Below are positions 39,975-55,789 of a stretch of 64,000 nucleotides of DNA, one piece after another. Positions within the stretch are counted from its first letter, which is position 1, and each line of letters starts with the position of its first letter. The translations under genes were made by a program, and so were the position numbers. Under the pieces are notes generated by a model, which was not told where the DNA came from, did not search any database, and worked only from the letters and a program-made list of their open reading frames with translations. Source of the stretch: an uncultured Chloroflexia bacterium (GTDB lineage: Bacteria > Chloroflexota > Anaerolineae > Anaerolineales > Villigracilaceae); NCBI GenBank assembly GCA_963782935.1, contig CAWALN010000022.1:75531-139530 (forward strand), written 5' to 3'.

Positions 39975-40761
39975 TCAGCCACCGTTGATTGCGAGCCGGC
40001 GCATCCCGCGTGAAAAGGCCAGGGCCACAATGCCGCCTAATACGGCCAGCCAGATGAGTTGGCCGGAGATGATTTGAATGAAAATCGGCAGGCTGGGTTC
40101 CACAAAGAGACGCGCCGGCCCGTACATCATGTAGGCAAATGGAAGCGATTTGGCTACCGATTGCAGCCAGAGTGGATAGAAATCCAGGGGGACCAGCATG
40201 CCTCCCAGGATGAATACCAGTTTTTGGTAGATCCATTCATAAGGAGCCACTTCCTCCGAGACAAAGGCAGACAAACCAATGAGAGCATTCACGCAAAAAT
40301 GCAGCAGCCACGCACCGGCCAGATGTCAACGCTGCAACCGGCCAGTTGACAAGACTCGGAGGAGGCCCGGCCATGACCCACACCAGCGCGCCTCCGACCA
40401 GAAAAAGCAACCCCATCCGCGGCAGGCTTTCCCCCAGCCCGCTGGCGAGCTGGTAGATCAGAAAATTGTAGGGTTTGTTGATCAGATAGGCGATGGAGCC
40501 GTCTTTGACCTGGTCCGAGATGACCCGGGCGAGGCGCGGACGCCCAAGTTCCAGCGTCTCGGCCAGCAGCAGATACCAGATGGTGTCTTGCAGAGTTAAG
40601 CCGTTAATGATCTCGGTGCCGGAGTTGCTGAAGACTATCCGCCATAATTGAAAGAAGACCCACATGAAGATCAAGATCATGCCCGAGCGCGCGATCAATT
40701 CCGCCGGGTAGGCCAGGCTGTTGAGCAGGTTGATCTGAAAGACGGCGTAATATTTCTTCAT
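39975..40761 (-). CDS. ABC-2 type transporter permease (frame break near 40280)
   Basis: MKKYYAVFQINLLNSLAYPAE.. continues in ORF 39975-40292. The start overlaps the fucosidase stop (ATGA). Confidence 0.6.
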
Positions 40762-42050
40762 GCCTTCAAGGTTAATTCCACCACAGGGACGATCACGTCC
40801 GGCTGTTTGACCGGCAGCCACAAAATCAGGTCTTCCGGGCGGATCTGCAACTGGTCTGTCTCCCAGGCCGGCGCCTCAATCCGGACCTCGCTGCCGTCAT
40901 GGAGGAAGCGGGCGTACTCCACTTTTCCTGCCAGCCCTGGCAAGGAGAGCATCCGGAACGGCCAGGCATAGAAGTGGACGTATATCTTGTTTCCGTTTTG
41001 GGTCAAACGGCAGTCCTGCGGGGCCTGATAATCGCTTTGATTGCAACCGTAAATGGCATCATTGTGAGTCGCCATCCAATCCCGGTAGACCCTTAAAGAA
41101 GCCTGGGCCCTAGGATCGAAGGTGCCCAGGGAGGTCGGACCTACATTCATGAGAAGGTTGCCGCCACAGGAGACGCAATTGATAAGCATGCGGATTAATT
41201 GACCCGGGCTTTTCCAGCTCTCCTCATCCCGGTGGTATCCCCATGAACCGGAAAACGTCTGGCAGGCTTCCCAAACGACCGGCTTCCCATTCACTTTGAC
41301 CCATTCGGTCGGCTGGACTTGTTCAGGTGTATGGACATCGGCCATCTCAGCCGGCAGATCCAGGCGGTTGTTCAGGATGATCCGCGGGCTGAGTTGGCGG
41401 ATCAATGCATGCAGCTTCTCGCTTTCCCACTCCAGGCGGCCCTTGCCGGGCAAGCCTTTATATCCATGGGTCGGATAAGAGAAATCGCACCAGAGGATAT
41501 CCGGTTGGAAGCGGGTCAATAACTCCTCCACCTGATTGCGGATATATTCGGCATAGCGCGGCATATGCCTTTCACGATTAAGGTCGGCCACATTTGGATC
41601 ATCCCGCAGCGGATGGAAGACATCGATGGGAAAGTCCGGATGGTGCCAATCCAGCAGGGAATAATAAAATCCGACTTTCAACCCTTCCTCCCGGAAGGCC
41701 TCCACGAAAGGCGCCAGCAGGTCCTTGCCATAGGCCGTATTGGTGGCCTTGTAATCGGTATATTGGCTGTCCCACAGGCAGAAGCCTTCGTGATGTTTGG
41801 AGGTGATGACCGCATATTTCATCCCCGCTTCGCGGGCCTGTCTGGCCCATTCACGGGGGTCGTAGCGGGTGGGATTGAAGCGGGCCAGATAGCGGGCCTC
41901 ATACACGTCCGGTGGGATCTTTTCGGTGGATTGGACCCATTCGTGCCGGGAGGCCTGCGAATACAGGCCCCAGTGGATGAACATCCCAAAGCGGTCTTGG
42001 ACAAACCAGCTCGTGTCACCTCGTGTCTTTTCCGGCATCTCCATATCCAA
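40758..42050 (-). CDS. GH29 alpha-L-fucosidase
   Basis: RFGMFIHWGLYS, ITSKHHEGFCLWDS, DILWCDF motifs. Confidence 0.85.
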   Translation of the reverse strand: MDMEMPEKTRGDTSWFVQDRFGMFIHWGLYSQASRHEWVQSTEKIPPDVYEARYLARFNPTRYDPREWARQAREAGMKYAVITSKHHEGFCLWDSQYTDYKATNTAYGKDLLAPFVEAFREEGLKVGFYYSLLDWHHPDFPIDVFHPLRDDPNVADLNRERHMPRYAEYIRNQVEELLTRFQPDILWCDFSYPTHGYKGLPGKGRLEWESEKLHALIRQLSPRIILNNRLDLPAEMADVHTPEQVQPTEWVKVNGKPVVWEACQTFSGSWGYHRDEESWKSPGQLIRMLINCVSCGGNLLMNVGPTSLGTFDPRAQASLRVYRDWMATHNDAIYGCNQSDYQAPQDCRLTQNGNKIYVHFYAWPFRMLSLPGLAGKVEYARFLHDGSEVRIEAPAWETDQLQIRPEDLILWLPVKQPDVIVPVVELTLKA

Positions 42051-43483: not shown

Positions 43484-45337
43484 CTATATGTGGGAAAAAA
43501 ACGTTCCTTTTCGCAATAGCGCATAAGTTACTATGGGCTATTATTATTCGGAATAGAGTTCCAGAGTTGCTCCAGTTGACCGAGTTGATGATTGGCTAGT
43601 TTGGAGGAACGCGTGTGAAGTCTGAAACGGTCTTGGTGCTGACGCATACGGAGGCGTTCATCCTGAAATTTGTTTGGAACAATCTGAGACACAATTCGAA
43701 TGGTTTCATACAGCGTATCGGGGTGGGGTAACAATTCCCATGCGCCTTGACGCTGAATAATACGAAATGTGAGACCCTTTTGTCCAGTGGTGCGCAGTAA
43801 ACGACGGCCAAGGGCTCGAAAATCGCTTTCTCGATCATTATTGGTGCGGGGCAGGCCAGGTACATCGTAACAATGGAATAAACCGGGGGCAAAACTGCGG
43901 GTGGTTTTTAGAATGAGGCGAAAAGAATTGCGCAACATAGGATCCCTGAAGCGGTTGGATTGGATTTTGGTCAGGTAGACGAACAGGTCTTGGCGGACTT
44001 GATCGCCAGAGCGGTTGGGGTTTTGCTCAGGATCCAAGAGAGCGGCAATGTGTTCCAACCAATCGGCGGCCTCTCGCACAATAGAATAAGTTGCCTGGGC
44101 AGACCGAAGTGATGTTTTTAGTCCTTGATGCAATGTCAGCAATTGAGGCGTGGAATGATGAACCATTAAGCGATCCAAGAATTCCTTGACTTCGGATAGA
44201 CCCACAAACATCTCCATTCCCGCCAGGCGCAAAGGAGGCCGACCTTTGAGGGTCAACAGATACCGGATCCGACGACATATTTCTCGCATAATCGCATCGC
44301 GAACTTTATCTCCATCTTTTCCCAATACGGGTTCAGAAACCGGACTGGGTGCTTCCAATGGCGACGGCAATACCCCGGTGATGGTCAAAACACCCTTGGC
44401 TTGCTCGTCTTCCTGGCGGATAAATGGACCAATCCTGGCTCTGACATCCTGTCGCAACAGCATTTTCATGGCTTCATCCGCTTCCGCCACAGGAACTGCA
44501 ATATTGCGCAAATAGTGGCTCTGACAAAAAGCATGCCTGGCCTGGGGAAAGACTTCAGCTATGGCTGACACCAGGCCGCTTTGTTTGTCGCTCATCACAG
44601 CAGTCACCCGCAAACCCAGATCGGCAATCGGTTGCAGGAAGGTAACGAAGGCGGCTTGATCTTGCTGGCTCATCCAGCCACAGCGCAATGTCACTCCACT
44701 CATCAGTTCTCGTACCAGCCACAACTGCGGCTCGCCTCCTTCGGGTGCCAGTCCGTCCAGGCTCAAGAGCAGTCCCATTTGGTCAGCCACTATTTTCAGA
44801 TACTTCATTTGCTCCCGTTCGTGACAGGCCAACAAGGGCAAATATCGATAGTAATACAACGCTCTCACTTGCAACTCGCTGATCCTGAGCCACTGTTTTA
44901 AATCTGCATGAATGGTGCCAAAGGGTTGCTGCAGGCTTTGCCGCTGCCAGCCAATCTGTGCAATCACATCATATCCATAGGTGCAAGAAACCGGCGCTAC
45001 CTGTCTCCATTCCACCGAACCCAATATCGCAAGAGAAACTTCACAACTGGGATCCACGCAACGCTTCGTCCGCTGCGCAATCATCATGACTTCCTTCATC
45101 CCTTGCACTGTTTTGTATTTACTCGTGTAGGCAACCCGCATTGGCCCCTGGCACTTTGGGCATCGATCCAATTCACAACTATATACCGTCCCTTTTCCCG
45201 AGTAAAATATCCCTGGGGTTCTCATGGCGCTCTCCTTTCTCAGCAAGAGGTCAGTTTGCCATGAGAACCCCTTTTCTTCAATATCTATAGTAAATTATGC
45301 GCTATTGCCCTTTTTCGATTTTCACTCCCAGATATGG
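43484..45337 (-). mobile_element. complete IS element (~1.85 kb) with ~50-bp imperfect terminal inverted repeats
   Basis: Left end ctatatgtgggaaaaaaacgttccttttcGCAATAGCGCATAAgTTACTAT matches the reverse complement of the right end ATAGTAAaTTATGCGCTATTGCcctttttcgattttcactcccagatatgg. Confidence 0.75.
43531..45246 (-). CDS. DDE-type transposase with an N-terminal zinc-ribbon (family not assigned)
   Basis: 571-aa intact ORF with CPKCQG..C..PSC, MSDKQSG and AFCQSHYLRN (C-x2-H..RN as in Mutator/IS256-like enzymes). Confidence 0.7.
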   Translation of the reverse strand: MLRKESAMRTPGIFYSGKGTVYSCELDRCPKCQGPMRVAYTSKYKTVQGMKEVMMIAQRTKRCVDPSCEVSLAILGSVEWRQVAPVSCTYGYDVIAQIGWQRQSLQQPFGTIHADLKQWLRISELQVRALYYYRYLPLLACHEREQMKYLKIVADQMGLLLSLDGLAPEGGEPQLWLVRELMSGVTLRCGWMSQQDQAAFVTFLQPIADLGLRVTAVMSDKQSGLVSAIAEVFPQARHAFCQSHYLRNIAVPVAEADEAMKMLLRQDVRARIGPFIRQEDEQAKGVLTITGVLPSPLEAPSPVSEPVLGKDGDKVRDAIMREICRRIRYLLTLKGRPPLRLAGMEMFVGLSEVKEFLDRLMVHHSTPQLLTLHQGLKTSLRSAQATYSIVREAADWLEHIAALLDPEQNPNRSGDQVRQDLFVYLTKIQSNRFRDPMLRNSFRLILKTTRSFAPGLFHCYDVPGLPRTNNDRESDFRALGRRLLRTTGQKGLTFRIIQRQGAWELLPHPDTLYETIRIVSQIVPNKFQDERLRMRQHQDRFRLHTRSSKLANHQLGQLEQLWNSIPNNNSP

Positions 45338-45488: not shown

Positions 45489-45517
45489 TTGACGGCTGCC
45501 CGGAATCGACGCATAAT
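45489..45517 (+). promoter_or_regulatory. sigma70-like promoter of the GntR gene (TTGACG, 17-nt spacer, CATAAT)
   Basis: TTGACG at 45489-45494, 17-nt spacer, CATAAT at 45512-45517. Confidence 0.45.
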
Positions 45518-45521
45518 GAAA

Positions 45522-45535
45522 GTGGTAACTACCAC
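45522..45535. promoter_or_regulatory. 14-bp palindrome GTGGTAACTACCAC (HutC/GntR-type operator candidate)
   Basis: Perfect GTGGT-N4-ACCAC, 5 nt after the -10 box. The same half-sites recur at 46592-46605. Confidence 0.5.
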
Positions 45536-45579
45536 ACTACCAGATAGGTGGACTCGTATGCCCGAAACGATCGATCCGA

Positions 45580-46299
45580 ATGATATCCTGCCCGCGTTAC
45601 TATCAACTTGCCAGCATCCTGCGAGACCGCATCACCGCAGGCGAATTTGCCGCCCATCAGTCCATTCCCGCCGAACGTCAGTTGGAAGAGCTGTATTCCG
45701 TCAGCCGGACCACCATCCGCCAGGCGCTTGACCTTCTCGTAAGGCAAGGCTTCTTATATCGTGAGCATGGTCGCGGCACCTTTGTCTCGCCTCAAAAGCT
45801 GCAAAAAGGTGTGTCTGAGTTGACCAGTTTCACGGAGGACATGAAAAAGCGCGGCCTCGTTCCCGGGCAAAAGATCCTGCAAATTGGCTATGTGGAGCCG
45901 CCCGCGAAGGTGCGTTCCCAGATGGAATTGCCTGAAAGCTGCAGGGAAGTTTTGCGCATCGAACGATTGCGCCTGGGGGATGGGGTTCCGATGGGGTTGC
46001 AGACCTCCTTATTACGCCTTGCCGGAAGGGCAGACCATCTCCCGGGAAGACTTGAGGAAAACGGCTCCATTTACCTGATCCTGCAGGAGAAATTCCATCT
46101 CATTCCGACGGAAGCAGATGAAACTTTGGAGGTGACCGTGGCGACGCCGGAGGAAGCTGCTCTTTTGCAGATCAAATCGGGCAGTCCTTTATTGTTGAGT
46201 GAGCGGACGACCTATTCGCAATACCGGCGGGTGATCGAGTTTGTCAAGATCGTCTATCGGGGGGACCGGTACCGTTATTTTGCGAAATTAACAAGATAG
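45580..46299 (+). CDS. GntR/HutC-family transcriptional regulator with a UTRA effector domain
   Basis: YYQLASILRDRI..G...LPAERQLEELYSVSRTTIRQALDLLV..G.LYREHGRGTFV wHTH, then a UTRA-like C-domain. An alternative start at 45558 (SD GGTGGA) would require a 1-nt correction in a C-run. Confidence 0.8.
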   Translation: MISCPRYYQLASILRDRITAGEFAAHQSIPAERQLEELYSVSRTTIRQALDLLVRQGFLYREHGRGTFVSPQKLQKGVSELTSFTEDMKKRGLVPGQKILQIGYVEPPAKVRSQMELPESCREVLRIERLRLGDGVPMGLQTSLLRLAGRADHLPGRLEENGSIYLILQEKFHLIPTEADETLEVTVATPEEAALLQIKSGSPLLLSERTTYSQYRRVIEFVKIVYRGDRYRYFAKLTR

Positions 46300-46377
46300 C
46301 CACAGAGTCCCCTGAGAAGCACTGAGAAATTATTAAATACAATTTGCTGCTAGCAGAATTCCTTCCCTTTGCCATAT

Positions 46378-46400
46378 AAACGGCTGAAGCCGTTACTACG
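46378..46400 (+). repeat. AACGRCTNMAGYCGTTACTAC hairpin repeat
   Basis: aaACGGCTGAAGCCGTtactacg. Related copies at 47236-47289, 50126-50145 and 53593-53628. Confidence 0.6.
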
Positions 46401-46548
46401 AAAAAATGGGTTTCCTGGGTCTCAGAGAGTTCTACTTTTTCTTTGTTCTCTCAGTGTTCTCGGTGATCTCTGCCTGCACAGTACCGCAGGTACACGTGTG
46501 GCTATTCTCCTTAGATTTCCGAATCCCTTTATGATCTTTATGAACTCC

Positions 46549-46577
46549 TTGACTTTTCCCTTTTCTCGTGCTAATAT
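46549..46577 (+). promoter_or_regulatory. sigma70-like promoter of the BMC operon (TTGACT, 17-nt spacer, TAATAT)
   Basis: TTGACT at 46549-46554, 17-nt spacer, TAATAT at 46572-46577. It lies 52 nt upstream of the ATG at 46629. Confidence 0.5.
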
Positions 46578-46591
46578 GGTAGTATGGTCAT

Positions 46592-46605
46592 GTGGTCATT
46601 ACCAC
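46592..46605. promoter_or_regulatory. 14-bp palindrome GTGGTCATTACCAC (HutC/GntR-type operator candidate)
   Basis: Perfect GTGGT-N4-ACCAC between the -10 box and the rpiB start. Confidence 0.5.
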
Positions 46606-46628
46606 TTTAACTAAAAAGGAATCCGTAA

Positions 46629-47235
46629 ATGAATTCAATCGATGATTCCGAGCTTCATAAACTAGTGGAGAGAGTGGTTAACCAGGTCATGGGCAATTCC
46701 AAACCTGTGCTTACCGGCTGCTGCTTCTCCAGCGGAAGCCCCAAAAATTCAGGCGACTATCGATTCGAGCCCAAAAGGTTCTAATAAAGTGGTCGCCATC
46801 GGTTCAGACCACGGCGGTTTTGACCTGAAAGACAATCTCAAAGCCTACCTGGCAGAGTTGGGCTATGAAGTCAAGGATGTAGGAGCTTACAACAAAAGCG
46901 CAGTCGATTATCCCGATTTTGCCCATGAAGTCGCCCGGCAGGTGAGTGTCGGCAAAGCCTGGCGAGGCATCATGATCGACGGAGCCGGCATTGGCAGTTG
47001 CATTGTCGCCAACAAGGTCCCCGGGATCCGGGCCGGCATGGCCTACGATTACTCTTCCGCCGTCAACAGCCGCGAACACAATGATACCAATGTGCTCACC
47101 CTGGGCGCCGGCCTGATCGGGATCACCCTGGCCCGCCAGATCGTCAAGATCTGGCTGGCGACCGAGTTCGGCGGCGGCCGGCATGCGCCCCGGATCGAGA
47201 AGATCACCGCGGTGGAAAAGCAGTATTTGAAATAA
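46629..47235 (+). CDS. rpiB: ribose-5-phosphate isomerase B (RpiB/LacAB family) with an N-terminal encapsulation-peptide-like extension (frame break near 46700)
   Basis: MNSIDDSELHKLVERVVNQVMGNSKPV, then the rpiB frame upstream of 46789 reads LPAAASPAEAPKIQATIDSSPKGSNK before VVAIGSDHGGFDLK..GIGSCIVANK core. Confidence 0.8.
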
Positions 47236-47289
47236 TGTAGTAACGACTTCAGTCGTTATTACCAAGTAACGACTGAAGTCGTTACTACA
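47236..47289. repeat. 54-bp composite palindrome made of two inverted hairpin-repeat units
   Basis: TGTAGTAACGACTTCAGTCGTTA-ttaccaag-TAACGACTGAAGTCGTTACTACA. Confidence 0.7.
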
Positions 47290-47307
47290 TGACAAGAGGT
47301 CATCATT

Positions 47308-48235
47308 ATGGTCCCAGATGTGAAAACAGTTGAAAACCTGGTGGAGATCATCACCCATGAAGTCCTGGTGGCGATGATGGAACAGAAAGAAAAGGCCCAG
47401 GCGCCGGGAGATAGCCAGTGCAAGTTCAATTGCACCGACGGCCTGTGCGTCCGCACCTGCTTCGACCGCACCGGACAGGTGGTCAGCGCGGGGGCGGAGC
47501 GCCTCTCCTCGACCATCGGCGTGATCCCGCAAAACCTGGATCTGGCCGGGATGATCGACCACACCCTCCTAAAACCGGAAGCCACCCCGGACCAGATCGC
47601 CCAGCTTTGTTTCGAAGCTCGCAAATATGGATTCGCCTCGGTCTGCATCAACCCCACCTGGGTGGAATTATGCGCTAAATTGCTGGAAGGTTCTTCCGTG
47701 AAAGTCTGCACGGTCATTGGCTTTCCCCTCGGCGCGACCGCTCCGGAGGTGAAGGCTTTCGAGACCAATAATGCCATCGACCACGGCGCCTGCGAGATCG
47801 ATATGGTCATCAATATCGGGGCGTTGAAAGCGCGTGACCTGGACTTGGTCGCGAAAGATATTCGCGGTGTTGTTACAGCCGCTCATGCCCGCAGCGCCAT
47901 TGTCAAGGTCATTATCGAAGCGGCCTTGCTCACGGATGAAGAAAAGACCATCGCCTGCCTGCTCTCGAAGGAAGCCGGGGCGGATTTCGTCAAGACCTCC
48001 ACCGGTTTTGCCAGCGGCGGAGCCACCGTCCATGACGTCGCCCTGATGCGGAAAGCGGTCGGCGCGGAGATGGGCGTCAAGGCGGCTGGCGGCGTCCGCA
48101 CTTATGAGGATGCCGAAAAGACTGGTCAAGGCCGGGGCTACCCGCATCGGTGCCAGCGCGGGCGTGAAGATCATCCAGGGCCCCACCAAGGAAGCTGCCG
48201 GTACCTCGGCTCACGCGAAGGCAGCCAATTATTAG
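47308..48235 (+). CDS. deoC: deoxyribose-phosphate aldolase (DERA) with a ~90-aa N-terminal extension (frame break near 48118)
   Basis: [33 protein letters not shown] (Schiff-base Lys context). N-terminal [17 protein letters not shown] helix and a [14 protein letters not shown] motif. Confidence 0.85.
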
Positions 48236-48318
48236 TTCGACAATTGCTAGATAAGAATTATTTTGCATGATCATGTCTACGAGAGTAAAGAACTTTTCCT
48301 TTTTTCTTCATTTCTTAC

Positions 48319-48338
48319 TTTGTGTCCTTTGTTATTAA
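48319..48338 (+). repeat. GTGTCCTTTGT word motif upstream of BMC-P1
   Basis: tttGTGTCCTTTGTtaTTAA, about 35-50 nt upstream of the ATG at 48372. Confidence 0.5.
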
Positions 48339-48371
48339 GGTGTTTTGTAAAAAGTACTTTAGGAGATTACC

Positions 48372-48662
48372 ATGTTGATCGCCAGTGTCGTCGGAACGAC
48401 CGTCTCGACCATCAAGGATGAAAAATTAACCGGGAGGAAACTGCTCATCCTCCGCCAGACGGATGAGACCGGCAACCCGTTCGGGAAGCCTTACGTGGCA
48501 GTCGATACGGTCGATGCCGGCATTGGCGACCTGGTCCTCACCTGCGCGGGCTCTTCCGCCCGCCAGACCAACATTACCAAAGATACTCCGGTGGATGCCG
48601 TCATCATGGCAGTCATCGATTCACTCGAAGTGGATGGCAAAGTCGTATTCCGTAAGTCGTAG
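48372..48662 (+). CDS. BMC vertex pentamer protein (EutN/CcmL family, BMC-P) 1
   Basis: MLIASVVGTTVSTIKDEKLTGRKLLIL..AVDTVDAGIGDLVL..GSSAR. Confidence 0.85.
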   Translation: MLIASVVGTTVSTIKDEKLTGRKLLILRQTDETGNPFGKPYVAVDTVDAGIGDLVLTCAGSSARQTNITKDTPVDAVIMAVIDSLEVDGKVVFRKS

Positions 48663-48673
48663 AGGTCAGCAAG

Positions 48674-50157
48674 ATGGATAAAGATCTCGCCTCCATACAA
48701 GAAGCCCGCGACCTGGCCATGGCAGCTCATACCGCCTGGCAGAGTTGGTCCAAGGCTTCGCAGGAACAGGTCGACCGGGTCTGCGCGGCCATGGCAGAGG
48801 CCGGTTATGCCGCCTCGGAGCGGCTGGGCCGCCTGGCCCAGGAAGAGACCGGCTATGGGGTGGCTCTCCATAAAAAGCTCAAGAATGAGTTCGGCTCGCG
48901 AAATGTATGGGAGAGTATCCGGGATGTCCGCACGGTCGGCGTGATCCGGCACGATCCCGCCCGCCGGGTATACGAGATCGCCTGGCCGATGGGGATTGTG
49001 GTGGCGCTGGTTCCGTCCACCAACCCGACTTCCACGGCCTTTCTTCAAAGCCCTGATCGCGGTCAAGGCCCGCAATGCCATTGTGGTCGCGCCTGCATCC
49101 GGCCGCGGCCCGCTGCACCTATGAAGCCGTCCAGACCATGGCGATGGCAGCCGAAGCTGCCGGCGCGCCGAGGGGACTGGTCTCTTGCATGCAGCAGATC
49201 AGCCTGCCGGGTACACAGGAATTGATGACCCACCGTTATACCGCCATCATTCTGGCGACCGGCGGGACCGCCATGGTGAAGGCGGCTCATTCCACCGGCA
49301 AACCGGCTTATGGCGTCGGTCCGGGGAATGTGCCGGTCTACGTGGACCGCAGCGCCGATATCGATAAAGCCGCCCGTTATATTGTCGCCTCCAAGGCCTT
49401 CGATTACTCCACCATTTGCGCCACCGAACAATCCGTCATTGCTGACCGTCCCATTGCCGCTCAATTATTGGAGCGGATGCGGGCGGAGGGGGCTTACCTG
49501 ACCGATCCGGACGAAACCCAGGCCCTCCGCAGGGCTCTCTATCATCCGGACGGCAGCATCAATACCGCCGTGGTTGGGAAATCCGCCCAATTCGTGGCGG
49601 GTTATGCCGGTTTCAGTATCCCGGCGGACCGGCGGATTCTGTTGGCGCCGTTGAGCAAGGTCGGGAAGGAAGAACCTCTCTCCCATGAAAAATTGACCAC
49701 CGTCCTGGGATGGTACACCGCCGATGGTTGGGAGCAGGGCTGCGAGACTTCCATCGCCATCATCAATACGGGTGGGCGCGGCCACACCCAGATCATCTAT
49801 GCCAATGATGAGAAAGTCATTATGGAGTTCGGCCTGGAAAAGCCCGTCTTCCGCATCCTGGTCAACACGATGGGAACGCTCGGCGCGATCGGCCTGACCG
49901 CCGGGGTGATGCCTTCGATGACCCTTGGCTCGGGCGGAGTTGGCGGGGCTATCACCGGCGATAACATTACTGCCACCCACCTGATCAATATCAAGCGCCT
50001 GGCCTACGAGACCATGCCGCCTCCGCTGGAAGCGTTCCAGCGCGGCGAAGCCCCTGCCGGTCCCACACCGGAAGAGCTCGAGCGGATCGTCCGCCTGGTG
50101 GCGGAGGAAATCTTGAGAGTCGCTGGTAGTTGCGACTTCAGTCGCTCTGTTATTTGA
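48674..50157 (+). CDS. CoA-acylating aldehyde dehydrogenase (AdhE/SucD-like) with a C-terminal amphipathic helix (frame breaks near 49045 and 49095)
   Basis: VPSTNPTSTAF/FKALIAVKARNAIVVAP/HPAA.. across three frames. GPGNVP and TICATEQSVI catalytic Cys context. C-terminal PEELERIVRLVAEEILRV. Confidence 0.8.
50126..50145 (+). repeat. hairpin repeat unit overlapping the 3' end of the aldehyde dehydrogenase ORF
   Basis: gtagtTGCGACTTCAGTCGCt. Confidence 0.5.
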
Positions 50158-50410
50158 TAAAAGCGCTAACGGCTGAGTAGCTTTGTTGCAATGATCCACC
50201 AAAGTCCTGCCGCGGAGTCAACGTCTCCAGACGTTGAGCGGCGGGTGCAATATCGGAGAATTCACTACGGAGGATGCTTCTCTTTATTATTCTTTACCTT
50301 CGTGTACCTTCGTTACCTTAGTGGTGAGAGTTCTTTTCTTGTGTTTTTTGAGGTGAAATTATTCGCCTCTCATTTGAAAGATCTACAAAATTCAGAAAGG
50401 AAGAATAGAA

Positions 50411-50744
50411 ATGGCACTGGATCCCTCTTTAATTGCTCTTGGAATGATCGAGACGAAAGGACTGGTCGGCGCGATCGAGGCAGCCGATGCGATGGTCAAG
50501 GCCGCTAACGTCACCCTGCTCGGCTCCGAGTATGTCGGGCGGCGGTTTCGTGACCGTCATGGTCCGCGGCGATGTCGGCGCGGTCAAAGCCGCCACCGAT
50601 GCCGGCGCGGCTGCCGCCAAGCGGGTGGGCGAACTGGTCTCGGTCCATGTGATCCCGCGACCTCACACCGACGTGGAAATGATCCTGCCCAAGGCCAGCA
50701 AGGGCTCCATTGGCGGCCGCAATTCCGGGCCCAAGAACGCCTAG
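50411..50744 (+). CDS. BMC hexamer shell protein (BMC-H, PF00936-type; frame break near 50540 in a G-run)
   Basis: [57 protein letters not shown]. Confidence 0.85.
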
Positions 50745-50855
50745 ACCGTCTCTCGCATTCTAGAGACCAATCTCGAAGGGAAATCTCCGTCCTCCTCAGG
50801 GACGGTCTGAATTGATTTGCCTTTGAGTAAAATAGGAAATAAAGGAGAGAGACGC

Positions 50856-51534
50856 ATGGCTGAAACATTTTCCTTGCGGTGCTACTGCTACCTCGACCGG
50901 ATGCAGCCGCAGTTCGCTGCGTTCGTCGGGACGATAACCCAGGGTGATTTGCCTACGGAAGGCATGGCGGCTTTGTACGTGGAAATGGCGCCCGGGAATG
51001 AGGTCTTCCGGGTGGTGGATATCGCCGTCAAGGCCACCGAGGCCCGCCCGGGCGCGCAGATCGTCGAACGCGAGTTTGGCATGTTCGAAGTGCATTCACT
51101 CAGCCAGGCAGACGTGCTTGCAGCCGGCGAAATGGTCCTCCAGCGGCTTGAACTGACGGTCAAGGACCGCATCCGTCCGCAGGTGGTTTCCACCCAGGTG
51201 ATCACCCGCATCGACCCGTACCAGGCCCAGTTGATCAACCGTTTTCGCCGCGGCTCAATGCTGGTCGCTGGCGAGACCATGCTGGTGTCTGGAATGCGCA
51301 CCGGCTGCGTATATCAATATTGCCTGCAATGAAGCCGAAAAGACCGCCAGCATCAAGCTGATCCATGTGTCTTCGGTGGGGCGGTTCGGGCGCATGTGGT
51401 TATCCGGCTCGGAAGCCGAGATCATGACTGCCAAAAATGCGGCCATCCAGGCCCTTGAAGTCTCTCTCGGGCAAGGCCGGAGCCTAGGCTGGAAAGGAAG
51501 AGACCATGCCGAAAGAATTCTATACGGAACGTGA
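50856..51534 (+). CDS. tandem-BMC-domain shell protein (BMC-T-like; frame break near 51288; 3' end uncertain)
   Basis: Two BMC-like halves: LYVEMAPGNEVFRVVDIAVKATEAR..FGMFEVHS and MLVLECAPAAYINIACNEAEKTASIKLIHV..GRFGRMWLSGSEAEIMTAKNAA. SD AAAGGAGAG. Confidence 0.6.
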
Positions 51535-51861
51535 TATCGAAGATATGTGGAAGCGCGGCATTATGTCGCTGCAAGTGACGGACAACGTGGTCCTGACCGA
51601 GCTGGCTTATGAAAAGGCCAGCGGCTGGGCATGCAGTTGCTCAAGGAGAAACCGGTCGAACCACCTGGCGCTCCGGTGCGGCCTTATCTTTCCCAACCGG
51701 TCCCGCCTGCGCCCATCCCGGCGGCTCCGGCAGCGGCCTCCCAAACGGATCTGCAGGCCCGCATCCGCTCGGCTGTATTGGCCAGGCTGGGCACCCAGAT
51801 CGATCCGCAGTTGTTGGACGTGATCATCCAGCGGGTCATCCAGCAAACGGGAGTTAAATAA
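51506..51861 (+). CDS. BMC-locus hypothetical protein: folded N-module, Pro/Ala linker, C-terminal amphipathic helix (frame break near 51620)
   Basis: MPKEFYTERDIEDMWKRGIMSLQVTDNVVLTELAYEKA/QRLGMQLL..PVPPAPIPAAPAAA..LQARIRSAVLARLG..QLLDVIIQRVIQQTGVK. Confidence 0.45.
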
Positions 51862-51922
51862 ACCTGAGTCCAAAGTCTCCAGACTTTGGGTTCTTGGCTC
51901 GGTCTTTGGAGAACCTTCAACT

Positions 51923-52243
51923 ATGTTATTTGGCCGTGTCAAAGGCAGCGCCGTCTGCACCCTCAAATACCCCGGCACCGAAGGGTTGAAGCTGCTGGTG
52001 GTCCAGCCGCTGAATAAGCGCCTGGAACCGGTCGGCGCCCTGCAGGTGGCTGCGGACGTGGTCGATGCCGGGCCGGGCGACCTGTGCGTAATGGTGCGCT
52101 CCCGCGAAGCCGCCCTGGCCCTGCCCGATGTGAAATTTGTGCCGGTCGACCTGGCCCTGGTCGGCGTGGTGGATGATCTCGATATCCGCCCCGACGGCGA
52201 ATTCGATTTCACCCTCCGCAAAGGCTGGACCCAATTTTCATGA
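51923..52243 (+). CDS. BMC vertex pentamer protein (BMC-P) 2
   Basis: MLFGRVKGSAVCTLKYPGTEGLKLLVVQP..AADVVDAGPGDLCV. Confidence 0.8.
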   Translation: MLFGRVKGSAVCTLKYPGTEGLKLLVVQPLNKRLEPVGALQVAADVVDAGPGDLCVMVRSREAALALPDVKFVPVDLALVGVVDDLDIRPDGEFDFTLRKGWTQFS

Positions 52244-52273
52244 ATTAGAATCGATCCAAGAATTTACCACGAC

Positions 52274-52290
52274 GGACACGAAGGACACAA
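52274..52290 (-). repeat. GTGTCCTTCGTGTCC word motif (reverse orientation)
   Basis: The plus strand reads ggacacgaaggacacaa. The flanking ccacgacggacac..aacgga is mirrored at 53631-53650. Confidence 0.45.
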
Positions 52291-52386
52291 CGGAAAGAAA
52301 AAGAACAGCGAAGGTTTTAAAGAAACACTTTGAATTGAGATTTCACGATCTGATTTCAGAATTTTCGGATAGACTCTTCTATTATA

Positions 52387-52407
52387 GGAGTGCAGGCTTC
52401 AGCCTGC
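52387..52407 (+). repeat. GGAGTGCAGGCTTCAGCCTGC hairpin repeat, copy 3
   Basis: Identical 21-mer to the one at 54792-54812. Confidence 0.7.
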
Positions 52408-52432
52408 CTCCCCCAAGGATAATAAGACATCC

Positions 52433-52702
52433 ATGATCATAGGTAAAGTCGTCGGTACCATCGTCACTACCCTCAGCCACCGGGACTATAAAAACCGGCG
52501 GCTTCTGGTCGTCCAGCCCATGGGTCTGGAAGGCGAAAAGCCGGACGAGGATTTCATTGCCCTGGATAACACCCAGGCCGGCATCGGCGACACCGTCCTG
52601 GTCAACCGGGAAGGCAACGGCGCCCGCCAGGTGCTTCAAAACCCGGATGCAGCCGTCATTTCGGTCATCGTGGGGATTATCGATTCGGTATATATGGAAT
52701 AA
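52433..52702 (+). CDS. BMC vertex pentamer protein (BMC-P) 3
   Basis: MIIGKVVGTIVTTLSHRDYKNRRLLVVQP..ALDNTQAGIGDTVLV..GNGAR. Confidence 0.85.
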   Translation: MIIGKVVGTIVTTLSHRDYKNRRLLVVQPMGLEGEKPDEDFIALDNTQAGIGDTVLVNREGNGARQVLQNPDAAVISVIVGIIDSVYME

Positions 52703-52798
52703 TAGTTGGGTTTTTATTGCTAGGGCGAGCCACCGGCTCGCCCAATTTTTTTTTATAGCAGTAAAATTAGAACAATCGCCCATCGAGGAGGAGAGTCC

Positions 52799-53594
52799 AT
52801 GGACATGCAGCTCAAAGATAAAGTCGCCGTCATCACCGGCGGGAGCAGCGGCATCGGGGAGGCCGTCGCCAACGCCCTCGCCCGCGAGGGAGTCCAGCTT
52901 GTTCTCTGCGCCAGGGATAAGGAACGAGTGGAAAAAACGGCCCGGCGCATCACGGAGGAATTCAAGGTCCGGGCCTTTGGATTCTCAACGGATGTATCCA
53001 ATCCTGCCGATATTGCCGGTTTGCTCGATGATATTCGCATTCGCTTTGATGGGGTGGATATCCTCATCAATAACGCCGGCGCGGGCACCAATGAGACCAT
53101 CCTGGACGCGCCGGATGAAAAGTGGCAGCATTTTTGGGACCTGCATGTCATGGCCGCCGTGCGTCTGGCTCGCGGTCTCGTCCCGCTGATGCGCCTGCGC
53201 GGTGGCGGGGTCATCTTGAACAATGCCTCCATCTGCGCCAAGCAGCCCCTTTATTACGAGCCGATCTACAATACCACCAAAGCCGCCTTGATGATGCTCT
53301 CCAAGTGCATGGCCAATGAGTTCATCAAGGATAAAATTCGCGTCAATTGCATTAATCCCGGGCTGGTGCTGACTCCCGACTGGATCAGCACGGCCAAGAA
53401 ACTGACCGCCGAGACCGGAGCCACCTGGGAATCCTATCTCGAAAAGATTGCCACCGAATTCGACCCCCATTGGCCGCTTCGCCACGCCGGAAGAATTGGC
53501 GGAGTTCTTTGTCTTCCTCTGTTCCCCCCGTTCCAGTTACTGCGTCGGTTCCACCTTCTACGTGGACGGCGGTTGGCTCAATTCCCTCGCATAA
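52799..53594 (+). CDS. short-chain dehydrogenase/reductase (frame break near 53465)
   Basis: VITGGSSGIGEA, NNAG, YNTTKAA. The C-terminus ..GRFATPEELAEFFVFLCSP..YVDGGW is in a shifted frame. Confidence 0.8.
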
Positions 53595-53628
53595 ATCGTA
53601 GAAACGACTAAAGTCGTTACTACGATTT
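53593..53628. repeat. hairpin repeat unit / terminator-like palindrome
   Basis: AAATCGTAGaAACGACTAAAGTCGTTaCTACGATTT. Confidence 0.6.
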
Positions 53629-53678
53629 ATGTCCGTTGTGTCAGTCGTGGTGAAGGCCCTTTCTTAGCTCCACCCGTC

Positions 53679-53707
53679 GTGTTCCTTTGTGTCCTTTGTG
53701 TTTAATT
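53679..53707 (+). repeat. tandem GTGTYCCTTT word motif upstream of the Zn-ADH gene
   Basis: GTGTTCCTTTGTGTCCTTTGTGTTTAATT, 26-54 nt upstream of the ATG at 53733. Confidence 0.55.
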
Positions 53708-53732
53708 TCCTTCTCTATAAATCGAGGTACCA

Positions 53733-54757
53733 ATGAAACAAGCCGTTATGACCGCTCCGGGCAAGATCGAGATCCGCCAGGTTGAGTCTCCGAAACCGAA
53801 GCCGGATGAAGTTCTCATCGAAGTCAAGCGCATCGGGGTGTGCGGGTCGGATATCCATGTCTATCATGGGACCCATCCTTACACCGGCTATCCGGTCGTC
53901 CAGGGCCATGAAGTCTCTGGTATTGTGGCTGAAATTGGTTCTGATGTAAAGGATTTCCATCTCGGTGACGTGGTTGTGTTCATGCCCCAGGTCACTTGTG
54001 GGACCTGTTATCCCTGCCGGCATGGGATGGAGCATATCTGCGATAATCTCAAAGTAATGGGTTTTCAGACCGATGGCGCGGCTCAGCAGTTTTTCCCGGT
54101 TCCAGCCAGGCAGGTTCTCAAAGTTCCTGCCCATATTCCCCTGGACCAGGCCGCCATGATCGAACCACTGTCAGTGGCCGTCCATGCACTTTCCCGTTAT
54201 GGGGATGTCCGCACCAGGAAGGTGGTTGTGTTGGGCGCTGGCACCATCGGGAATCTGGTGGCTCAATCTGCGCGGGCCTTGGGGGCCGCCAAAGTGTTGA
54301 TCACGGATATCAGTGAATACAAGCTCGAGAAAGCCCGTCTCTGCGGGATCGATCTGGCTATTAATACCTCTCAGACGAACCTGGGCGAGGCCATCCTGCA
54401 AGAGTTTGGTCCCGACAAAGCTGATGTCATCTTCGAATGCGTCGGTGCCCAGGAGACGATTTCCCAGGCCGTCCAATTTGCTCGCAAGGGCTCCACCATC
54501 GTGGTGGTGGGCGTATTTGGCAGGAAACCGGAGGTGGATCTGGGTTTCGTCCAGGACCGTGAATTGACCCTGACCGGCACGCTCATGTATCAGAAAAAGG
54601 ATTATGAACTGGCTATCCGGTTGATGGCATGAAGGCCAGCTCAATCCTGGAACCCATGATCACCCAGCGGTTCCCGTTTGATGAGTACCTGCAAGCCTAT
54701 CACGCCATCGAGGCTTCCAAGGGCGAGTATCTAAAAGTAATGATCGATTTGGATTGA
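53733..54757 (+). CDS. zinc-dependent alcohol/polyol dehydrogenase, MDR family (frame break near 54632)
   Basis: GVCGSDIHVYHG, GHE.SG, C..C..C structural zinc motif, VLGAGTIG. The tail ..FPFDEYLQAYHAIEASKGEYLKVMIDLD is in a shifted frame. Confidence 0.8.
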
Positions 54758-54791
54758 TTATCGAGACTATCCTCTCCGGCAGCAGCGAACA

Positions 54792-54812
54792 GGAGTGCAG
54801 GCTTCAGCCTGC
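54792..54812 (+). repeat. GGAGTGCAGGCTTCAGCCTGC hairpin repeat, copy 4
   Basis: Identical 21-mer to the one at 52387-52407. Confidence 0.7.
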
Positions 54813-54893: not shown

Positions 54894-55676
54894 TTGTCTG
54901 ATCTTTGTCTGCTGGGCGCTTTGGCAGGGGATGTGATCGGTTCGATCTATGAATTTGAACATTTCAAGAGTATGGATTTTCCGCTGTTCTCTCCAAACTC
55001 TCATGCCACCGATGACAGCTTCCTCACCCTGGCAGTCGCCGATGCCATTCTCAAGCAGGGGAGCTACCACGATGCCATCCTCTCTTATGCCCGTAAATAT
55101 CCCAGCAGCTATGGGGGGAACTTTCGGGTCTGGATGAATTCCAGTGTTCCCCGCCCTTATGCCAGCCTGGGGAATGGGTCCGCCATGCGGGTCAGTCCGG
55201 TCGGCTGGGCTTTTGATACCGAGGCAGAAGTTTTGCAGGAGGCGGAAAAAAGTGCGGCCGTTACGCATAGCCATCCTGAGGGGATAAAAGGCGCCCAGGC
55301 GGTAGCCCTGGCAATCTTCCGCGCTCGCAAGGGTGCCAGCAAAGCTGAAATTCGCCTGGAAACCACTCAGCGGTTTGGCTACGATCTCAGCCGCTCGATC
55401 GACGAGATCCGGCCCGGCTACGGGTTTGATGAGACTTGCCCGGGAACTGTACCGCCGGCCATTACCGCCTTCCTGGAATCGGTGGATTTTGAAGACGCCA
55501 TCCGCAAAGCCGTTTCCTTGGGCGGGGATGCCGATACCCTGGCAGCGATCACGGGTTCGATTGCAGAAGCATTTTATGGGGGGGTTCCGGCTGGCATACA
55601 GGAGGAATTACCGCAGCGAATTCCAGCGCAATTATGGGAGGTGGTGTTATTATTCAGTCAGAAATATGCCTGCTAA
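54894..55676 (+). CDS. ADP-ribosylglycohydrolase family protein
   Basis: GALAGDVIGS, TDDS, GNGSAMR, GGDADTLAAITGSIAEAFYG. Confidence 0.8.
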   Translation: MSDLCLLGALAGDVIGSIYEFEHFKSMDFPLFSPNSHATDDSFLTLAVADAILKQGSYHDAILSYARKYPSSYGGNFRVWMNSSVPRPYASLGNGSAMRVSPVGWAFDTEAEVLQEAEKSAAVTHSHPEGIKGAQAVALAIFRARKGASKAEIRLETTQRFGYDLSRSIDEIRPGYGFDETCPGTVPPAITAFLESVDFEDAIRKAVSLGGDADTLAAITGSIAEAFYGGVPAGIQEELPQRIPAQLWEVVLLFSQKYAC

Positions 55677-55761: not shown

Positions 55762-55789
55762 GTGTCCCTTGTGTCCTTTGTGTTTAAAT
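55762..55789 (+). repeat. tandem GTGTCCYTT word motif upstream of the GAF-HD-GYP gene
   Basis: GTGTCCCTTGTGTCCTTTGTGTTTAAAT, 34-61 nt upstream of the ATG at 55823. Confidence 0.55.

Follow-up and report, generated by a model that had tools for sequence, protein, structure and literature searches.

The SPU6 type of bacterial microcompartment (BMC), one of the sugar-phosphate-utilising (SPU) types, is catalogued from Chloroflexi only, with an aldehyde dehydrogenase (AldDH), pfam01791 and pfam02502 (Sutter et al. 2021, Supplementary Data 2), and a EutJ-type protein is present in only 8 of the 44 SPU6 loci of that catalogue. Its enzymes were studied in vitro by Dwyer, Sutter & Kerfeld 2024 (Commun Biol 7:1562). 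The SPU6 deoxyribose-phosphate aldolase (DERA), without its extension of ~70 aa, cleaves deoxyribose-5-P. The SPU6 ribose-5-phosphate isomerase homologue (RPI), with Asp for the catalytic Cys66, is essentially inactive on ribose-5-P; DERA and RPI form a roughly 1:1 complex, and RPI left DERA kinetics unchanged. Absence of phosphotransacylase (PTAC) and of PduS is also reported for SPU6 in the published SPU description. Here we describe a locus in a 64,000-nucleotide stretch of DNA (the window) from an uncultured Chloroflexia bacterium (contig CAWALN010000022.1). This locus is very likely a catabolic microcompartment (metabolosome) operon of type SPU6 from an uncultured member of the Anaerolineales (Chloroflexota), with the regulation, chemistry and assembly proposed below and with frameshifts that stem from assembly error.

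Open reading frame (ORF) listing and profile searches together delimit a co-oriented run of genes on the + strand at 45558-54757. In order, these encode a GntR regulator with a UTRA domain, an RpiB-like protein, DERA, the pentamer protein BMC-P1, AldDH, the hexamer protein BMC-H, the trimer protein BMC-T, a 118-aa protein, BMC-P2, BMC-P3, a short-chain dehydrogenase/reductase (SDR) and a zinc-dependent alcohol dehydrogenase (Zn-ADH). All genes named in the original prediction, which was made from the sequence letters alone, are present, co-oriented and on this strand. The regulator, too, is co-oriented with the operon and not divergent. Every item of composition and order catalogued for SPU6 by Sutter et al. 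2021 has its match in the locus. The feature set consists of a GntR/HutC regulator, an RpiB-like protein, DERA with an N-terminal extension, an acylating AldDH with a C-terminal helix, one BMC-H, one double-stacking BMC-T (BMC-T(dp)), three BMC-P and a EutQ-like protein of ~118 aa. The presumed host also agrees, as the nearest loci belong to Anaerolineales metagenome-assembled genomes (MAGs) and to Longilinea arvoryzae, and the window flanks are syntenic with two related loci, L001 and L002.

Assignment to the SPU group, as predicted originally, was therefore sharpened to subtype SPU6 by comparison with the 2021 catalogue. The label PVM-like, offered as the other option, was discarded: neither the class II aldolase PF00596 nor a PTAC (PF06130 or PF01515) was present in the locus or among the window ORFs of at least 150 aa that were scanned, and the host is of the wrong phylum. 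A EUT-type function, including EUT3, was likewise rejected, as EutB/C ethanolamine ammonia-lyase, EutA and a BMC-T(sp) of the EutL kind were not found in the window. The same ORF scan contained no PduL/Pta, acetate kinase or PduS; for PduL/Pta and acetate kinase this is what the prediction had stated. It had also assumed an uncharacterised type, and this has to be corrected, since SPU6 is catalogued, abundant and partly characterised. Its statement that substrate and physiology had not been established no longer applies to the substrate, given the assay of DERA on deoxyribose-5-P (Dwyer 2024), and still applies to physiology in vivo. The locus is a further example of a known, partly characterised type and is ordinary apart from a few small details.

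A genome scan with AldDH was used to fetch 80 related loci, ~60 of which extend far enough for gene order to be judged. The order RpiB-DERA-P-AldDH-H-T-small protein-P-P is kept in all of these. Nearly all fetched loci come from MAGs of Anaerolineales/Anaerolineaceae, many of them from one long-read soil survey, and one comes from the cultured Longilinea arvoryzae KOME-1 (L009). The nearest are 87-90% identical to the window in AldDH, and none closer than ~90% was present in the genome collection. In ~40% of the related SPU6 loci (L007, L010, L011, L022, L024 and ~25 others) an extra ~0.9-1.2 kb lies between BMC-H and BMC-T, presumably one additional gene; this interval is not in the window. 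The families are large, with 5398 clusters at 90% identity for BMC-T and 2388 for the 118-aa protein, and the latter is encoded in every complete related locus.

The signature enzyme of the locus, DERA, retains the catalytic residues D165, K229 and K258 (numbering of Dwyer 2024) and is ~60% identical to the solved deoxyribose-phosphate aldolase 8QPS (E 4e-89; identity counted from the printed alignment). Its N-terminal extension of 76 aa contains an amphipathic helix and is conserved in relatives. The extension carries the motif C-X3-C-X4-C-X3-C at aa 38-51 (window 47419-47460), which is without mention in the main text of Dwyer 2024. At the same position in L001-L081, 57 of 67 related loci retain the complete set of four cysteines although the residues between them vary (54 different sequences), and the two middle ones are lost jointly in one Anaerolinea clade (10 loci). 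This pattern of conservation suggests that the motif is a structural metal-binding knuckle. The idea that the extension is a portable module was tried and abandoned. A HMMER search with 78 aa against 1.84 billion representatives gave 68 matches, and the identifiable ones were DERA N-termini or fragments; the extension was not seen on other enzymes in this search, in which P0267 was left unexamined. Two odd matches that were examined (P0288 and P0297) are low-complexity repeat proteins.

AldDH has its best NCBIfam match in TIGR02518, acetaldehyde dehydrogenase (acetylating), at 557 bits, below the cut-off of 620. The nearest entries in the Protein Data Bank (PDB), 5J78 and Listeria 3K9D (E 1e-141), are acetylating acetaldehyde dehydrogenases, and the catalytic Cys248 is kept. 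The protein has no N-terminal extension and ends in a targeting helix, LERIVRLVAEEILRV. Its C-terminal tail differs from the tails of relatives, and the last ~10 codons are overlapped by a palindrome at 50126-50146 that resembles repetitive extragenic palindromes (REP-like). In the RpiB-like protein the targeting helix is N-terminal. The original choice of the GTG at 46789 as the rpiB start was replaced by 46629 (Table 1), from which the repaired frame encodes an amphipathic helix, SELHKLVERVVNQVM, followed by a Pro/Ala linker. The hydrophobic moment of all three helices exceeds that of shuffled sequences (RpiB N-terminal, p 0.006; DERA N-terminal, p 0.02; AldDH C-terminal, p 0.004), and the helices are conserved in relatives. 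Alignment to 1NN4 places Asp117 of the RpiB-like protein at the catalytic Cys66 of E. coli RpiB, with the His kept as His150; the C. thermocellum RpiB also has Cys at the position of this Asp. By analogy with the SPU6 RPI, the window protein is probably a non-catalytic adaptor that binds DERA.

The chemistry implied by these enzymes, from deoxyribose-5-P to glyceraldehyde-3-P and acetaldehyde and on to acetyl-CoA, had been predicted and was judged right. A different or additional sugar phosphate has to be considered, with the RpiB-like protein as an active isomerase that acts on an unidentified substrate before or after the aldolase, and with deoxyribose-5-P as an in vitro surrogate only. RpiB is universally kept beside DERA and is fused to it in SPU3. 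The window protein passes the rpiB equivalog (157 bits against a cut-off of 139) and retains the catalytic His, and this reading was left open by Dwyer et al. 2024 themselves. The gene content of the window also counts against deoxyribose-5-P: no gene for nucleoside phosphorylase, phosphopentomutase or deoxyribokinase was seen in it, and deoxynucleoside-salvage genes do not adjoin the locus. However, the SPU6 RPI had negligible activity on ribose-5-P and did not affect DERA kinetics (Dwyer 2024). The close match of DERA to 8QPS with its full catalytic triad, and an AldDH of the acetaldehyde-specific EutE/AdhE type, further favor the cleavage of deoxyribose-5-P. Another substrate was therefore considered unlikely.

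The shell-protein assignments stand. Predicted matches to PF00936 and PF03319 were confirmed for the three BMC-P proteins and, after frame correction, for BMC-H. The tandem-domain BMC-T scores only 19.9 bits against PF00936, below the gathering score. Matches were also obtained for the remaining profiles, PF02502, PF01791 and PF00171. BMC-T is nevertheless a full-length homologue of CcmP (PDB 5LSR/4HT5, E 1e-61), HO-5816 (2e-58) and CsoS1D (2e-48), with its pair E71-R72 aligned to the ER pair of CcmP. The top database homologues of BMC-T all have 209 aa and carry PF27545 CsoS1D_N; the frame-corrected window protein has the same length. The single BMC-H of the locus carries the standard VKAAN and PRPH interface motifs. 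BMC-P1 is 90-93% identical to its L001 and L002 orthologues, and the three BMC-P proteins are mutually 30-37% identical, with P2 and P3 encoded by adjacent genes and P1 apart.

The 118-aa protein had no Pfam or NCBIfam match and, by phmmer, no PDB match beyond low-complexity noise, and a Foldseek search of the PDB with its AlphaFold2 (AF2) model yielded no match with E under 0.85. Alignment of its family to residues 2-100 of E. coli EutQ by hhalign gave E 5.7e-5 (probability 66%, identity 26%). Within the family (32 members aligned), an invariant N-terminal part of ~47 residues and a PPAAPVRPY motif precede a variable Pro/Ala linker and a conserved C-terminal part of ~38 residues. The AF2 model shows a structured N-domain (1-47), a disordered Pro-rich linker and two C-terminal helices (mean pLDDT 70). 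Only EutQ's N-terminal part is matched and a cupin domain is lacking, so that the protein is not a full EutQ. In Salmonella, the EutQ N-terminus (residues 1-99) is a shell-cargo linker in which H1/H2 bind the shell and H3/H4 bind targeting peptides, and the cupin domain is dispensable for assembly (PMC12487888, Sci Adv 2025); SPU is without mention in that paper. Because it is homologous to the EutQ linker region, has the same layout and has no cupin, the SPU6 protein looks like a stand-alone shell-cargo linker of a cupin-less EutQ-N type. Two observations weaken this comparison, namely that the homology to EutQ is modest and that AF2 gives an alpha/beta N-domain where two helices are described for EutQ.

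Two promoters were found, one for gntR and one for the operon, each followed directly by a palindrome (Table 1). The operon site TGGTCATGTGGTCATTACCAC contains GTGGT-N4-ACCAC, of which the 64 kb hold two exact occurrences, both at these promoters. The promoter-operator block upstream of rpiB is conserved in relatives. Where a GntR gene is adjacent, 36 of 37 loci have the palindrome at most 250 nt upstream of rpiB, as compared to 4 of 23 loci that lack such a gene (Fisher p = 8e-11). It is also present upstream of gntR, at a distance of 32-59 nt, in 34 of 44 related loci. The TGGT-N4-ACCA palindromes are thus candidate operators of the GntR/HutC regulator, and the site resembles HutC-family operators. 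Matches to the promoter consensus inside the operon were not above expectation (11 against 6.6 +/- 2.7 in shuffled sequence), and internal promoters were not supported.

Table 1. Positions in the window of the features of the locus and its surroundings.
Feature	Position	Strand	Match, length or sequence detail
Insertion sequence (context, outside the organelle)	43513-45308	-	22-nt terminal inverted repeats; 6-bp CCTTTT direct repeat on both sides; intact 571-aa transposase
gntR promoter and candidate auto-regulatory operator	45489-45535	+	TTGACG, 17 nt spacer, CATAAT (45489-45517), directly followed by palindrome GTGGTAACTACCAC
GntR/HutC regulator (winged helix-turn-helix and UTRA effector domain)	45558-46299	+	PF00392 69 bits, PF07702 113 bits; 246 aa after removal of an extra C at ~45594
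Operon promoter and candidate operator	46549-46605	+	TTGACT, 17 nt spacer, TG-extended TAATAT (-10 ends 46577), directly followed by TGGTCATGTGGTCATTACCAC
RpiB-like protein	46629-47235	+	PF02502 177 bits; 201 aa after removal of one base at 46713
Double REP-like palindrome, rpiB-DERA spacer	47237-47290		24-nt arms, 100% complementary; spacer of 8 nt here in L001
DERA, signature enzyme	47308-48235	+	TIGR00126 deoC 286 bits (cut-off 117); PF01791 51 bits; 308 aa after removal of one base at 48121
BMC-P1 (pentamer, vertex)	48372-48662	+	PF03319 98 bits; 96 aa, intact
CoA-acylating acetaldehyde dehydrogenase (AldDH)	48674-50157	+	PF00171; 493 aa after removal of bases at 49043 and 49095
BMC-H (hexamer)	50411-50744	+	PF00936 103 bits after frame correction; 110 aa after removal of one G at 50540
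BMC-T(dp), tandem-domain double-stacking trimer	50856-51487	+	209 aa after removal of bases at 51288 and 51457
118-aa protein, homologue of EutQ N-terminus	51506-51861	+	hhalign; one base missing at ~51619
BMC-P2	51923-52243	+	PF03319 72 bits; 106 aa, intact
BMC-P3, last operon gene	52433-52702	+	PF03319 77 bits; 89 aa, intact
Intrinsic terminator, end of microcompartment operon	52723-52751	+	9-bp stem, 8 G-C pairs, then AATTTTTTTT
Generic SDR oxidoreductase (neighbour)	52799-53594	+	One extra base at 53468
Zn-dependent medium-chain dehydrogenase, polyol/threonine dehydrogenase-like (neighbour)	53733-54757	+	Frame breaks 54630-54646
Frameshift positions, gntR to BMC-H	gntR 45594; rpiB 46713; DERA 48121; AldDH 49043, 49095; BMC-H 50540
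Frameshift positions, BMC-T to ADH	BMC-T 51288, 51457; small protein ~51619; SDR 53468; ADH 54630-54646

The following sequence of events is proposed for the organelle. A HutC-type GntR repressor would bind TGGT-N4-ACCA at its own promoter and at that of the operon, immediately downstream of the -10 box in each case, and would be released by a sugar-phosphate effector, plausibly deoxyribose-5-P. DERA would then split 2-deoxyribose-5-P into glyceraldehyde-3-P and acetaldehyde, as the SPU6 orthologue does in vitro, and the co-encapsulated AldDH would trap the acetaldehyde as acetyl-CoA with production of NADH. The RpiB-like protein, its catalytic Cys lost, would serve as an adaptor that bears a targeting helix and is bound to DERA. 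The 118-aa EutQ-N-like protein may bridge the shell, through its N-domain, and the targeting helices, through its C-terminal helices. In the shell, BMC-H is predicted to tile the facets and the three BMC-P paralogues to cap the vertices. Sugar phosphates, and perhaps CoA and NAD(H), would probably pass through the gated CcmP-like BMC-T(dp), because the locus has no gene for a phosphotransacylase, an alcohol dehydrogenase or PduS.

Beyond the single locus, we put forward, tentatively and with rather less than even confidence, that a minimal kit, not yet described as such, serves the assembly of SPU6 organelles. In it, a stand-alone EutQ-N linker would connect the shell with the targeting helices of RpiB, DERA and AldDH, a dead RpiB would act as adaptor, and the four-Cys knuckle of DERA would bind metal; a HutC repressor would act on TGGT-N4-ACCA at the two promoters.

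The reading frames of the locus are broken by ~12 frameshifts in 9 of its 12 genes, and only the three BMC-P genes are intact when compared with the intact orthologues of L001 and L002. The breaks were first shown by three-frame translation and then placed against the orthologues of L001, taken from a homologue-encoding contig, and of L002, taken from the genome scan. All but one (~11 of 12) are a single extra base. About half lie in short runs (CC->CCC, TT->TTT, GG->GGG) and the rest outside runs. Across the 64-kb window ~35 apparent single-base indels break genes. Outside the locus the split genes encode a glycoside hydrolase of family GH1 (~9679), a pyridine-nucleotide oxidoreductase (~18030), Ldh (~19350), an E1 dehydrogenase (~23710), a TMEM260-like protein (~30600), an ABC permease (40322), SIR2 (60674) and an amylase (~61778). 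The GH1, pyridine-nucleotide oxidoreductase, E1 and TMEM260-like splits were located from Pfam coordinates, and those of the permease, SIR2 and amylase by reference to L002. A codon-usage frame scan indicated roughly 20 more breaks and a second dense stretch at 26.5-31.9 kb; the region 32-45 kb, including the insertion sequence (IS), is nearly free of them. A high G+C content was dismissed as an explanation for the clustered indels, as this second stretch has only ~50-53% G+C.

We infer that these frameshifts are consensus indel errors of the assembly rather than biology, because they are nearly all one-base insertions, occur window-wide and come without excess amino-acid change. Several observations speak the other way and would fit a locus that is a truly decaying array of pseudogenes, with real frameshifts accompanied by the nearby IS and by REP-like insertions in the spacers. 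Break density is ~1.3 per kb in the locus as compared to 3 breaks in ~14 kb of syntenic flanks (Poisson p = 8e-6), or ~3-6 times that of the flanks. A rough ab initio estimate for the rest of the window is likewise exceeded (p = 0.002), although breaks are about as dense at 26.5-31.9 kb. A real break in DERA would cost the enzyme its C-terminal 37 residues, including a conserved stretch, and real breaks in BMC-H and BMC-T would truncate both. An intact IS lies 180 bp upstream of the gntR promoter, and REP-like palindromes expand several spacers relative to L001, one of them overlapping the last AldDH codons.

The amount of amino-acid change argues against decay. In bacterial pseudogenes, at least 10 neutral indels are expected with roughly 60-150 extra non-synonymous changes, that is, a rise of 0.015-0.04 in the non-synonymous substitution rate (dN). 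The excess observed in the window lineage is about 0. Distances in dN to three outgroups are 0.108/0.115/0.130 for the window and 0.109/0.117/0.130 for L002, so that the non-synonymous branch length equals that of relatives. The ratio of dN to the synonymous rate (dN/dS) between the window and relatives is 0.07-0.09, the same as among relatives (1746 frame-corrected codons). Long-standing pseudogenisation was rejected. The locus also contains no in-frame stops, deletions or lost catalytic residues; the breaks consist almost entirely of single added bases, whereas decay in bacteria tends towards deletion; and the E1 dehydrogenase, pyridine-nucleotide oxidoreductase and SIR2 genes elsewhere in the window are broken alike. 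Real decay of the locus was accordingly judged improbable. No contig of the same species was found for a check of the frameshifts (L083-L085 are from a third species), and the only metagenome contigs recovered with an exact 26-mer were four unrelated ones (L086-L089), which share the REP-like palindrome. The BMC-T clusters closest to the window are 97% and 94% identical. Calls of truncated genes from this window need the reads.

Downstream of BMC-P3, the SDR and the Zn-ADH had been proposed as candidates for NAD+ recycling. As organelle parts they would regenerate NAD+ by reducing part of the acetaldehyde, and the pair is indeed co-oriented with the operon and immediately downstream of it. The window, L002 and L083 represent three species with DNA identities of only 72-80%, and in each of them the pair comes after BMC-P3. 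However, L002 is syntenic over ~25 kb, and relatedness by itself would lead one to expect common neighbours; the pair was beside the locus only in these three out of ~68 loci with downstream sequence, being absent from ~65 other SPU6 loci. A strong terminator separates BMC-P3 from the SDR. This terminator is evidence for the window only, because a crude scan found one after BMC-P3 in just 13 of 68 loci. Both proteins are without extensions at either terminus and are generic, falling under every NCBIfam equivalog cut-off, with the ADH resembling polyol or threonine dehydrogenases; in SPU loci, the reported alcohol dehydrogenase belongs to the Fe type (PF00465). A role of the pair in the organelle is thus very unlikely, and the proposal was rejected. 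The SDR and Zn-ADH are probably neighbours, and neither should be taken for cargo of the organelle.

The IS upstream of the regulator, also part of the original prediction, is real, as its inverted ends, the flanking CCTTTT repeat and the intact transposase show. The transposase is a distant match to the Mutator/IS256 type, and the element is missing from the syntenic relative L002. In L005, positions 2314-2865, between two gntR copies, are 79-86% identical to one IS end. Insertions may thus recur in the stretch upstream of the regulator.

Several repeats occupy the spacers. In addition to the double palindrome between rpiB and DERA, related REP-like copies with the core AACGACTTCAGTCGTT were found at 46375-46401, 50126-50146, 50218-50237, 51870-51889 and 53598-53625. 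Within the window this family is confined to spacers of the microcompartment locus, and the spacers of relatives are much shorter there. A second kind of repeat, similar to TCCTTTGTGTCCTTTGTGTTTAA, precedes BMC-P1 (48316-48338), the Zn-ADH (53683-53705) and a GAF-HD gene (55765-55787), with an inverted copy at 52276-52300. An identical 22-mer, AGGAGTGCAGGCTTCAGCCTGC, occurs at 52386-52407 and 54791-54812, before BMC-P3 and before an ADP-ribosylglycohydrolase gene. The latter gene (54894-55676) stands between the Zn-ADH and GAF-HD genes and is absent from this place in the otherwise syntenic L002. On the other side of the locus, an alpha-L-fucosidase gene (40758-42050) separates the ATPase gene of an ABC-2 transporter operon from its permease gene, an arrangement shared with L002 and not with L001.

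The locus itself adds little, as SPU6 was catalogued in 2021, its core enzymes were assayed in 2024 and thousands of near-identical metagenome copies exist. It does provide leads for work on SPU organelles. The conserved operator makes the regulator testable, and the small protein is linked to the EutQ shell-cargo linker. The four-cysteine motif of DERA had gone unremarked, and the cultured carrier Longilinea arvoryzae KOME-1 is available for tests of physiology.

The known systems share different parts of this organization. In the cytosolic deo regulon, DeoC is controlled by a DeoR repressor that is induced by deoxyribose-5-P. The aldolase chemistry is common to both, as is a repressor that probably senses a sugar phosphate. 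In contrast to that regulon, the window DERA has a targeting extension and is encoded with shell genes, the repressor is GntR/HutC and not DeoR, and deoA, deoB and deoD are not adjacent. The PVM and PVM-like organelles for fucose and rhamnose have in common with the locus a BMC-P triplet, an acylating AldDH and an aldolase with an aldehyde among its products. Their class II aldolase (PF00596), PTAC and two BMC-H are not in the window, and their hosts are Planctomycetes/Verrucomicrobia (PVM) or Firmicutes (PVM-like), whereas the window host is of the Chloroflexota.

EUT3 organelles, such as that of Anaerolinea thermophila, serve ethanolamine utilisation. Per the Sutter catalogue they have the closest AldDH and BMC-T(dp) lineages, and they include a EutQ-type component and occur in Chloroflexota; the window differs in having DERA and RpiB, and three BMC-P rather than one. 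EutQ of Salmonella and E. coli and the 118-aa protein are laid out alike, each with a conserved N-terminal part that a flexible linker joins to two C-terminal helices. The window protein is without the cupin/acetate-kinase domain and only 26% identical, and binding of shell and helices is proposed for it by analogy.

The closest described system is the SPU6 operon of 'Chloroflexi bacterium GWB2_54_36' (Dwyer 2024). The window differs from it in the organism, in the broken frames of the assembly, in the REP-like palindromes of its spacers, in the upstream IS and in the downstream SDR and Zn-ADH; it is also without the extra gene between BMC-H and BMC-T carried by ~40% of related loci. Both have GntR(UTRA) ahead of RPI, DERA and AldDH, with the same enzyme order and shell set, in a Chloroflexota host and without PTAC or PduS. 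Both also encode a DERA with an N-extension of ~70 aa and D165/K229/K258, an RPI with an N-terminal helix and the Cys->Asp replacement, an AldDH with a C-terminal helix, and a small EutQ-like protein without a Pfam match.

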